Shown piece by piece: positions 61,198 to 63,521 of a stretch of 64,000 nucleotides of DNA (position 1 is the first letter of the stretch; every line of letters starts with the position of its first letter). The position numbers and the translations under genes were made by a program. Source of the DNA: Promethearchaeota archaeon. GTDB taxonomy: Archaea > Asgardarchaeota > Lokiarchaeia > Sigyniarchaeales > SOKP01. Location: NCBI GenBank assembly GCA_029838195.1, contig JALGVJ010000015.1, forward strand, positions 34,852 to 98,851. The letters run 5' to 3'. A model generated the notes under the pieces. It did not search any database, was not told where the DNA came from, and saw only the letters and a program-made list of their open reading frames with translations.

Positions 61198-61446
61198 ATG
61201 AATGAAAAAGAAGAAATAAAAATTGATGAGGAATTAGACACGCGAGGATTATTCTGTCCAGAACCATTGTTTGAGGTTAGAAATTTGTCGGAAACATTAG
61301 AAGTAGGCCAATGTTTCAAGGTAATAGCTGATGATCCTGCCGCTGAGGAAGATTTGAAGCGATGGGCTAAAAAGACGGATACGGAAATTCTTAAATTTCT
61401 AAAGGATGGTCATGACTTAATATTTTATTTTAGGAAAAAAAAATAA
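61198..61446 (+). CDS. tusA: TusA/SirA sulfur carrier
   Basis: LDTRGLFCPEP, ADDPAAEEDL..W; GAGG SD before ATG 61198. Confidence 0.92.
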   Translation: MNEKEEIKIDEELDTRGLFCPEPLFEVRNLSETLEVGQCFKVIADDPAAEEDLKRWAKKTDTEILKFLKDGHDLIFYFRKKK

Positions 61447-61530
61447 GCGGAAAATCATATAAAAATGTTAGAAACCATTTTTCTTAGCCCATTAATTTTT
61501 AAAAAAAAATCATAAAGGAGAAAGCCAAAA

Positions 61531-62724
61531 ATGAGCGTATATTTGGATTATCAAGCAGCTAAACCTGTTGATGAGAGAGTCCTGAAAGCGATGCTTCCAT
61601 ATTTCAATGAAATCTATGCTAATCCTGAAAGCTTACATCATGAAGGAGATTTAGCAACAGAAGCGTTGGAAAAGGCCCGTGAAAAAGTGGCTTCCTTTAT
61701 CAATGCTCCCGATCCAGAAAGTATCATTTTTACATCGGGAGCGACAGAATCAAATAATCTAGCATTGATTGGAAGTGCTTTACGGAATAAAAAGAAAGGA
61801 AATCACGTGATTATTTCTGAAATTGAACACATTTCGATTTTAAATATCGCAAAATATTTAGAACGACAAGGATTTAAAATTAGTCGCATCCCCGTGGATC
61901 AATATGGAATCATCAAGCTTGAGAAATTAGAACGGTTAATCACGGACGAAACCATCCTCATATCAATCGCAGGCGCTAGCAATGAAGTGGGGTCCTTGCA
62001 ACCTGTTAAAGAAATCAGCGAAATTGCGAAAGAAAAAGGAGTGTTATTCCATTCTGATGTTGTTGCCCTTGAATCTAGCATTCCAATTGACGTTCAAGAG
62101 ATCCCTTATGATTTTCTCTCCTTATCTTCTAATGATATTTATGGTCCACGAGGCATGGGTGCTCTTTATCTCAAGAAAGGACAAAGAGTAAATCCCATCA
62201 TTATAGGTGGCGGACAAGAACGAGGAATTAGGTCGGGAAGCCATGATATGGCTGGCGTCGTTGGATTCGGAACTGCTTCGGTTATCATGAAAAGAGAAAT
62301 CCATGAAGAGGCTCATCGGTTAAAAGGATATCGAGATGAATTGATAAAAGGAGTCTTGGAAAGCATACCTAAATCGTATCTTAATGGACACCCAGTCAAA
62401 AGATTGCCCCATAATGCTCATTTTCGCTTTGATTATATTGAGGGGGAATCTTTACTACTTGGATTAAAAGATAAAAAAATCGCTGTAGCAACGGGATCTG
62501 CTTGTAGTTCTAAAACATTAGAGCCTTCTCATACATTAATCGCCATGGGATTGCTTCATGAAGAAGCTCATGGAAGCTTGGTCATCACGTTAGGTCGCTT
62601 TACTAAAAAATCCGACATTGATAAATTATTACATGAATTACCTGAAGTGGTAAAACGATTAAGAATATTATCACCTCTCACTCCTCCTGAGTTATTAGAA
62701 TATTATAAGGTGGTGAACAAATAA
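61531..62724 (+). CDS. iscS: IscS/NifS-family protein with the PLP Lys replaced by Asp
   Basis: YLDYQA, FTSGATESNN, GGGQERG.RSG, TGSACSS; SSNDIYGP in place of SxHKxYGP. Confidence 0.92.
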   Translation: MSVYLDYQAAKPVDERVLKAMLPYFNEIYANPESLHHEGDLATEALEKAREKVASFINAPDPESIIFTSGATESNNLALIGSALRNKKKGNHVIISEIEHISILNIAKYLERQGFKISRIPVDQYGIIKLEKLERLITDETILISIAGASNEVGSLQPVKEISEIAKEKGVLFHSDVVALESSIPIDVQEIPYDFLSLSSNDIYGPRGMGALYLKKGQRVNPIIIGGGQERGIRSGSHDMAGVVGFGTASVIMKREIHEEAHRLKGYRDELIKGVLESIPKSYLNGHPVKRLPHNAHFRFDYIEGESLLLGLKDKKIAVATGSACSSKTLEPSHTLIAMGLLHEEAHGSLVITLGRFTKKSDIDKLLHELPEVVKRLRILSPLTPPELLEYYKVVNK

Positions 62725-62726
62725 AG

Positions 62727-63521
62727 ATGAAATCAACTCAATATTCAGACAAAGTGCTGGAACATTTTAGAAATCCCAGAAATGTAGGGGTCATAGAAAA
62801 TCCGGATGGATATGGTAAAGTAGGGAATCCTGTCTGTGGAGATCTAATGGAAATGTTCATAAAAGTCGGAAAGAATGATAAAGGTGAGGAAATTATAGAA
62901 GACATTAAGTTTCGCACGTTTGGATGTGGTTCTGCGGTTGCTACTTCAAGCATGACCACGGAAATGGCAAAAGGAATGAAATTAGACGATGCTTACAAGA
63001 TTACTCGTAATGATGTGGCGGAAGAACTTGAGGGCTTGCCCCCAATTAAAATGCATTGTTCTAATTTAGCGGCGGATGCTCTGAAAGCAGCGATTGATAA
63101 TTATAGAACGGGAAAAGAATCCGTAATTGAAGCGTCTGTTTCTTGTCAAGCCCTTGAAATTAAAATCATTTTAGGATTAGATGAATTCACGGGCAAGGGG
63201 GTATATCGAGAAGTTTCAAGCTTGGATGAATTTAATGATAAAAGAGTGCTAATCGTTGATACGGGAGAAAAATCCATTAGAACGGCGGTGGATCTTACCA
63301 AGCACACGGGACGGGTGATTTTGCTGACTTCGAGTGCAACACCTCCCGGAAATAAAGAATTACAAAAAGAGCTTAAATTTTCAGACGTTAAAATATTATA
63401 TCAATCCGAATTATTAGAGATTCAAGGTACGGATGAAGTAGAGAAAGTAATCGTTCATGATTTAGATGAAAATGAAAATTATGAATTATTTATTGATGCT
63501 GTAATTGTATTAAACGAATAA
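62727..63521 (+). CDS. iscU: IscU/NifU scaffold fused to a degenerate thioredoxin-reductase-like Rossmann domain
   Basis: YSDKVLEHFRNPRNVG, GNPVCGD, FGCGSA, KMHCS; C-terminal EFTGKGV...DKRVLIV...ELFIDAVIV. Confidence 0.88.
   Translation: MKSTQYSDKVLEHFRNPRNVGVIENPDGYGKVGNPVCGDLMEMFIKVGKNDKGEEIIEDIKFRTFGCGSAVATSSMTTEMAKGMKLDDAYKITRNDVAEELEGLPPIKMHCSNLAADALKAAIDNYRTGKESVIEASVSCQALEIKIILGLDEFTGKGVYREVSSLDEFNDKRVLIVDTGEKSIRTAVDLTKHTGRVILLTSSATPPGNKELQKELKFSDVKILYQSELLEIQGTDEVEKVIVHDLDENENYELFIDAVIVLNE

Follow-up and report, generated by a model that had tools for sequence, protein, structure and literature searches.

A conserved tusA-iscS-iscU unit with a lysine-less IscS in an Asgard archaeon, and the flavoprotein ancestry of its IscU extension

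The 64,000-nucleotide stretch of DNA analysed here (the window) is taken from contig JALGVJ010000015.1 (positions 34,852 to 98,851, forward strand) of Promethearchaeota archaeon assembly GCA_029838195.1, order Sigyniarchaeales, class Lokiarchaeia, and carries at 61198-63521 the genes for a TusA-family sulfur carrier, an IscS homologue that has no catalytic lysine and an IscU scaffold with an additional C-terminal domain. That these three genes constitute a conserved operon encoding an iron-sulfur (Fe-S) assembly pair of the Archaeoglobus fulgidus type, one that does not use sulfur from free cysteine, is a reading held here at about even confidence, and the module points to a previously undescribed cysteine-independent sulfur feed into Fe-S clusters. 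Sequence comparison shows that the extra domain of IscU derives from a complete flavoprotein, which Jord/Freyarchaeia retain as a fusion to IscU. Three co-oriented open reading frames (ORFs) on the plus strand, all of which had been named in a preliminary description of the window, were confirmed, with the following features (PLP, pyridoxal phosphate; TrxR, thioredoxin reductase; aa, amino acids).

61198..61446, plus strand: tusA, an 82-aa TusA-family sulfur carrier with Cys20 (TGT, 61255-61257) in CPEP
61531..62724, plus strand: iscS, a 397-aa lysine-less IscS homologue of the A. fulgidus IscS2 type
62131..62136, plus strand: codons AAT-GAT of Asn201-Asp202, which replace the His-Lys (PLP Schiff base) of active desulfurases
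62503..62505, plus strand: codon of Cys325, the flexible-loop Cys in GSAC, retained
62727-63521, plus strand: whole iscU ORF, a 264-aa IscU homologue with a C-terminal extension
62727..63110, plus strand: IscU scaffold domain, residues 1-128, with ligands Cys37, Asp39, Cys67, His110 and Cys111
63111..63161, plus strand: flexible linker, residues 129-145, with the single Cys140 (codon 63144-63146)
63162..63518, plus strand: vestigial NADPH-domain fold, residues 146-264, a TrxR-type flavoprotein remnant

Lysine-less IscS and its linkage to tusA

The window IscS belongs to the Aminotran_5 fold family across its full length (PF00266, E-value (E) 2.8e-75) and matches IscS/NFS1 structures in the PDB at E from 1e-91 to 1e-132, the best match being A. 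fulgidus IscS2 (4EB5, E 1.5e-132), in which the SSNDIYGP motif is identical, and the second the engineered D199K variant (4R5F). Within this motif Asp202 (GAT, 62134-62136) was aligned by HMMER to the Lys of 9WEP (sahKmyGP), and HSDVVA stands where active desulfurases carry HxDAxQ. These two motifs and the kept GSAC cysteine had been reported in the preliminary description, and codons and alignments agree with it on all three. Every NCBIfam desulfurase equivalog cut-off is missed, with 446 vs 531 bits for NifS and 393 vs 643 bits for IscS.

The pocket changes are shared across 50 Asp/Glu-type sequences, Gln being replaced by the equivalent of Ala179 in 48/50, His by Asn201 in 50/50 and Lys by Asp or Glu at position 202 in 50/50, against Lys at the Schiff-base position in 130/130 Lys-type sequences. 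T72, H100, D176, S199, R356 and the loop Cys are conserved in the same 50 sequences; Cys325 is invariant in the window protein's alignment (A2) and present in 49/50 sequences of the Asp-type clade, and mean column identity is 65% over 49 IscS sequences from archaea and bacteria. Fixation of the pocket changes alongside conservation of the remaining pocket residues and Cys325 indicates purifying selection rather than chance or decay, and a pseudogene was rejected given the strong conservation across two domains of life. The protein is an IscS without three PLP-pocket residues (Lys, His and Gln) that nonetheless keeps the dimer-type fold and the mobile loop Cys325.

The accompanying carrier scores 63.6 bits against Pfam PF01206 (cut-off 28.6; E 1.6e-17) and falls below the cut-off of the NCBIfam equivalog for E. 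coli TusA (NF001423; 48.5 vs 78 bits). Across 43 TusA sequences linked to the module, Cys20, Pro21 and Pro23 never vary. The tusA and iscS genes are separated by an 84-nt spacer, the iscU start lies 2 nt past the iscS stop, and a Shine-Dalgarno-like GAGAGG site is found 7 nt 5' of tusA.

Linkage of the Lys-to-Asp change, tusA and the IscU fusion had been proposed from the window alone, and it was followed across other genomes from two directions. Fused IscU genes were collected at 80 loci, from metagenome-assembled genomes (MAGs) labelled as Loki-, Thor-, Hel-, Hermod-, Hod- and Odin- Asgard archaea, from a few Halobacteriota and from bacteria, the last comprising Syntrophia and other Desulfobacterota, Thermoleophilia, Aminicenantes, Zixibacteria and WOR-3. 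An IscS with SSN[D/E]xYGP was present at every fused-IscU locus with upstream DNA and tusA at nearly all, the counts being 77 for IscS and 70 for TusA, with the remainder truncated by contig ends. Sampling independent of IscU, by scanning for the back-translated pattern NDIYGP[KR]G, yielded ~105 true Asp-type loci, with tusA upstream in 85/91 that could be assessed, a DsrE-family gene between tusA and iscS in 54/91, and IscU adjacent downstream in 78/84, comprising 53 fused and 25 plain forms. As a control, HKIYGP[KR]G was scanned for in the same way and 118 Lys-type IscS loci were recovered, in which tusA was upstream in 0/94, dsrE in 0/94 and a fused IscU was present in 0/92; these control loci are mostly bacterial, such that the tusA contrast is partly confounded with taxonomy.

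Plain IscU partners were found mostly in Bathyarchaeia (11/12) and Halobacteriota (8/9), and also at single Hadarchaeum and Methanomassiliicoccales loci. In Archaeoglobus, the gene for an orthologue of the crystallised IscS2 (E 4e-173 to 4EB5) is preceded by tusA at a distance of 17 nt and followed by a plain IscU of 154 aa, and the TusA link thus extends to the lineage of the crystallised A. fulgidus protein. Of the proposed linkage, the association of the Lys-to-Asp change with tusA therefore holds, and a fused IscU consistently lies beside an Asp/Glu-type IscS, but the fusion is not a required part, since many Asp-type loci, including that of Archaeoglobus, carry a plain IscU. Overall, the lysine-less IscS module is spread over Asgard archaea, Bathyarchaeia, Archaeoglobi, methanogen relatives and many anaerobic bacteria. 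Variations in arrangement were also observed: on a Methanophagales contig (JACUTR010000076.1; L142, 4414-7916) a Lys-type iscS (SAHKLYGP) lies divergently beside tusA-dsrE-iscS(Asp)-iscU, and at two loci, L124 (Thorarchaeota, 3524-5898) and L196 (2681-5757), an insertion of ~2.4-3 kb separates the Asp-type iscS from the iscU fusion.

Phylogenetic reconstruction placed these proteins in a single lineage. A FastTree phylogeny of 197 IscS sequences, which included 150 representatives of clusters formed at 50% identity from 1.8 billion proteins, gathered all Asp/Glu-type IscS in one 54-row split with support of 100 and zero Lys-containing members. An IQ-TREE phylogeny of 80 IscS sequences, rooted on Lys-type proteins, recovered the lysine-less clade with 72 rows (SH-aLRT 99) and the window IscS inside it. 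Partners of plain IscU, from Archaeoglobi, methanogen relatives and Bathyarchaeia, were basal in this clade, and partners of fusions formed a derived 46-row clade (support 97). Outside the Asp clade, 13/150 IscS representatives likewise have no PLP lysine (M, G, T, Q, S, N, L or R in its place; P0138, P0147, P0158, P0174, P0184, P0194, P0213, P0215, P0223, P0234, P0248, P0249 and P0262), most of them also without the Gln of HxDAxQ, and their positions elsewhere in the tree indicate that the lysine was lost several times in IscS-like proteins.

The IscU extension and its ancestry

The N-terminal part of the window IscU is a complete scaffold. Residues 5-128 match NifU_N (E 4.5e-46), the score against the NCBIfam scaffold equivalog TIGR03419 exceeds its cut-off (191.2 vs 187.9 bits), and all of 69 fused IscU proteins share the cluster ligands C37, D39, C67, H110 and C111. 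An AlphaFold2 model built with those 69 homologues (mean predicted local distance difference test score, pLDDT, 84.7) consists of two confidently predicted domains with a disordered linker between them at 133-145 (pLDDT <50), and Foldseek placed the scaffold domain on IscU 7C8M with a template-modelling score of 0.87. Linker Cys140 is conserved at >=90% in the 69 sequences, and exactly one linker Cys, 15-16 residues ahead of GKGV, was found in 41/44 scored fusions. Among plain IscU proteins, those of Archaeoglobi (L131, L161 and L199) and of L125 have an acidic C-terminal tail with a single terminal Cys (e.g. HGELCEGV), which recalls linker Cys140; as a general trait of plain IscU partners this tail was rejected, since outside Archaeoglobi it occurs in a single Asgard sequence.

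A match to thioredoxin-disulfide reductase (NCBIfam TIGR01292, E 8.5e-12) spans residues 132-261, and Foldseek placed the C-terminal domain on the TrxR-like NADPH domains of 2ZBW, 3F8D and 2Q7V, with a root-mean-square deviation of 1.6-2.2 over ~119 columns. The domain has no Cys, no redox CxxC and no FAD domain; its Gly-rich loop reads VDTGEKS (D-x-G, not GxGxxA) and HRR is replaced by TSS. Conserved motifs of its own are present in GKGVY, DKRVL, TGRV, SDVKIL and EVEKV..HD.DE.E.YEL.

The C-terminal domain was searched for in a sample of 151 Asgard genomes. The short fusion was present in 27/29 genomes of the window's family, 3/3 of a second and 29/32 of a third, and was not found in several other Asgard families, whose genomes are samples and not proof of absence. 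Above-background matches within 450-aa frames of another Asgard family led to a long form: a complete Freyarchaeota genome (CP147778.1; L239:5001-6344) encodes, in an uninterrupted frame, a 448-aa protein in which IscU is fused to a full TrxR-fold flavoprotein. This long fusion keeps GGGPAG, AAGD and a GNGDQA loop and has YYYVTYPEKF at the position of the TrxR CxxC; the order at the locus is tusA, Asp-type iscS, a 136-aa ORF with no Pfam match and the long fusion. It was found in Jord/Freyarchaeia only, at 6 genome loci and in ~13 protein clusters. One NCBI record from the CP147778.1 contig (P0271) names only a 326-aa 'NAD(P)/FAD-dependent oxidoreductase', and the IscU-flavoprotein fusion may be under-annotated in public records.

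Short C-terminal domains have their best BLASTP match in the NADPH domain of the long fusion (62-75 bits, 34-39% identity), other TrxR-like proteins reaching at most 54 bits, and the EVEKV..HDL.EDE signature is common to both. In the IQ-TREE phylogeny the IscS proteins of the long-fusion lineage are sister to the short-fusion clade. The complete CxxC-less flavoprotein fusion in Jord/Freyarchaeia and this sister relationship together identify the C-terminal domain as the vestige of a fused reductase. The nearest stand-alone relatives of the long-fusion flavoprotein (44-48% identity) are likewise without CxxC, and the CxxC was therefore probably never present in the lineage, the losses being those of the FAD domain and the nucleotide loop. 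The preliminary description had called the extension a dead TrxR domain; a TrxR-type NADPH fold without CxxC or Gly-rich loop is indeed present, but the vestige of a fused, CxxC-less TrxR-fold flavoprotein describes it better than a dead thioredoxin reductase does. On the simplest account, IscU was fused once to a complete flavoprotein without CxxC, both FAD-domain halves were then lost toward the window protein, and the module later passed between Asgard archaea and bacteria.

Sulfur source and alternative explanations

PMC7585200 reports no desulfurase activity for the A. fulgidus IscS, which carries this same Asp, and lists Methanosarcina acetivorans IscS1 as also without the Lys; in the A. 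fulgidus complex the IscS loop Cys and three IscU cysteines ligate a [2Fe-2S] cluster, according to PMC13066941. The relationship to the A. fulgidus protein suggested in the preliminary description thus stands, both in the best PDB match with its shared motif and in the reported inactivity and Cys ligand. The A. fulgidus IscS2-IscU pair (4EB5, 4EB7, 4HVK; D199K 4R5F) resembles the window pair in SSNDIYGP, the loop Cys, the adjacent iscU and membership of the lysine-less clade, but its IscU is plain (~153 aa), with no reductase-derived domain, and the window IscS lies in a derived sub-clade. PMC7585200 and PMC13066941 mention no tusA partner for A. fulgidus, yet the Archaeoglobus orthologue has tusA directly upstream.

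The window IscS is predicted to be unable to make a persulfide, and any sulfur transfer must then begin elsewhere. In the proposed mechanism, IscS would serve as a dimeric structural platform whose loop Cys acts as a shuttle or as the fourth ligand of the cluster, on the model of the solved A. fulgidus (IscS-IscU)2 complex, and TusA, with DsrE in many relatives, would carry sulfane sulfur as a persulfide on Cys20, to be handed to Cys325 of IscS or straight to IscU. The two electrons per sulfur would once have come from the fused reductase, which in the window lineage would have shrunk to a non-redox Rossmann domain on a flexible tether, where the remnant and linker Cys140 probably dock a partner or tune transfer. 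We infer the delivery of sulfur from TusA to the cluster. More broadly, it is tentatively suggested, at less than even confidence, that transfer from TusA (with DsrE, or with rhodanese reductases in relatives) to a lysine-less IscS and on to IscU is a distinct and widespread persulfide-fed Fe-S route of anaerobes, in one lineage of which the scaffold gained its own flavin reductase as an electron source, the extra domain in the window being its docking remnant.

Known sulfur relays bear on this proposal. TusA-DsrE relays and coenzyme A disulfide reductase (CoADR)-rhodanese persulfide reductases are represented among the genes that flank the module in relatives, DsrE at 45/80 fused-IscU loci and a CoADR-rhodanese-TusA-rhodanese protein at 37/80; elsewhere such relays feed dissimilatory sulfur enzymes, whereas in these relatives they lie beside an Fe-S scaffold, and neither neighbour was found in the window's genome with the queries used. 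The E. coli IscS-TusA pair (3LVJ) likewise combines the CPxP Cys of a TusA-family protein with an IscS-fold protein that has a mobile loop Cys, but in that species IscS is active and supplies TusA with sulfur for tRNA thiolation, and the two genes lie apart. The minimal ISC system (MIS) of archaea and anaerobic bacteria shares with the window an adjacent IscS-like/IscU-like core (MisS-MisU) and the absence of chaperone, carrier and ferredoxin genes from its operon; it differs in that PMC12192291 describes it as having a cysteine desulfurase, whereas the window IscS has lost its catalytic residues, and in that the window unit includes a gene for a sulfur carrier and a scaffold with an extra domain. 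MIS is the least studied Fe-S system, with unknown electron donors, according to a 2026 review (PMC13066941). The Jord/Freyarchaeia long fusion has the same order of tusA, Asp-type iscS and iscU fusion, a sister IscS and the best-matching NADPH domain, and differs in keeping its FAD motifs and GxGxxA loop where the window protein has lost both FAD halves and the Gly-rich loop.

Several observations weigh against persulfide feeding from TusA, in addition to the taxonomic skew of the control loci. In E. coli TusA takes sulfur from IscS and does not donate it, and the opposite direction of flow proposed here is putative. The predicted inactivity of the window IscS is extrapolated from the A. fulgidus protein at ~57% identity, and the retained T72, H100, D176, S199 and R356 could leave a pocket that still binds a ligand. 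DsrE and CoADR-rhodanese orthologues were not found in the window's genome with the queries used, and Fe-S supply need not depend on the module given a canonical IscS-IscU pair and a SufB-like gene in the same genome. Prediction of a complex of the window IscS, IscU and TusA returned a score of 0.00, which speaks neither for nor against binding.

The alternative that fares best, although still unlikely, is that the pair builds clusters from free sulfide, abundant in anoxic sediment, with TusA acting as a regulator or competitor at the IscS surface or exporting sulfur to other thiolation reactions. Sulfide use is documented for SMS and proposed for MIS (PMC13066941, PMC12192291), the E. coli direction from IscS to TusA is established (PMC13066941 names TusA as an IscS acceptor), and the missing relay parts in the window's genome would fit such a scheme. 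Retention of tusA at 85/91 Asp-type loci against 0/94 Lys-type loci is nevertheless hard to explain by sulfide use, as are the frequent DsrE and rhodanese neighbours in relatives, and an inactive IscS cannot load TusA.

Slightly less probable again is a role in holding, transferring or repairing clusters under oxidative stress, or in relaying sulfur to targets other than clusters, such as tRNA or molybdopterin. Genes for desulfoferrodoxin (31/80) and for rubrerythrin (24/80) recur beside the module in relatives, and other Fe-S machinery is present in the genome. Both stress genes are, however, absent from the window, the window IscU has the full ligand set of an assembly scaffold and passes the scaffold equivalog cut-off, and in some genomes only the Asp-type pair is seen. 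It is improbable that the window IscS is still an enzyme, with PLP or a similar cofactor bound without a Schiff base and with cysteine or some other sulfur compound as its substrate (e.g. TusA- or DsrE-bound), for although ring-stacking His100, Asp176, phosphate-side Thr72 and Ser199, and Arg356 are conserved in the clade, all class V desulfurases use Lys as their catalytic base, the A. fulgidus IscS is reported inactive in PMC7585200, the three pocket residues change jointly and stay fixed, and every desulfurase equivalog cut-off is missed.

Genomic context and significance

The window's genome, which is 96.6% complete, also encodes a SufB-like gene and, on another contig, a 413-aa Lys-type IscS (HTDAVQ, SSHKIYGP, GSAC) with a 122-aa IscU:

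Contig C49 of the window's genome (G000), positions 133483-135149 (locus L001, 1483-3176): canonical IscS-IscU pair

The canonical pair and the SufB-like gene indicate that the TusA-linked module is accessory or condition-specific here and not the sole machine, which contradicts the earlier suggestion of a variant minimal assembly machine insofar as this was taken to be the organism's minimal or only one. Both Lys-type and Asp-type IscS were present in nearly all sampled genomes of the window's family; within the class sample only the Asp-type module was found in 3 genomes (G004, G008 and G011, MAGs that are 88-94% complete) and only the Lys type in 2, counts to which MAG incompleteness applies. 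Two small regulators precede the canonical pair, one of them Lrp/AsnC-like with a Cys-rich C-terminal tail (CGNVCKDC...CDGCGNF) that could sense Fe-S or redox state. Two more NifU_N-like matches (94 and 48 bits) lie on another contig (C42:22168-23411; L011 and L013), each with one in-frame TAA, and may be broken paralogues or two short genes.

Around the module itself, the contig ends at window position 64000, which places the natural downstream neighbours out of view; no ORF of at least 60 aa was found 3' of iscU at 63522-64000, and an Rfam scan of 63400-64000 returned no match at E 0.1. An insertion here would account for both the break in the contig and the absence of the usual downstream genes. 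Upstream, a UroD/MtaA-like methyltransferase gene is present at 59503-60474 on the minus strand. In Loki relatives a gene for a B12-binding corrinoid protein lies immediately 5' of tusA (32/80 loci; e.g. L029, 3678-4313), and no remnant of it was found upstream in the window.

Lysine-less IscS proteins, from A. fulgidus and M. acetivorans (IscS1), and the core of a MIS-type pair were already known. The literature searched contained no link of TusA or DsrE to lysine-less IscS and no IscU-flavoprotein fusion, vestigial form or tree ordering them; the primary A. fulgidus and MIS papers lie outside that literature. Until now lysine-less IscS has been a curiosity, seen in A. fulgidus and a single Methanosarcina paralogue and with no explanation of where its sulfur comes from. 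If true, the persulfide route would answer where the archaeal minimal system obtains its sulfur and electrons and would explain the inactive A. fulgidus IscS, and the tie of the whole lysine-less clade to tusA, the crystallised lineage included, together with the decayed flavoprotein fusion, offers concrete and cheap experiments on an ancient type of Fe-S assembly. As the module is standard in the window's Asgard family (27/29 genomes), it should also be included when the metabolism of the closest archaeal relatives of eukaryotes is reconstructed.

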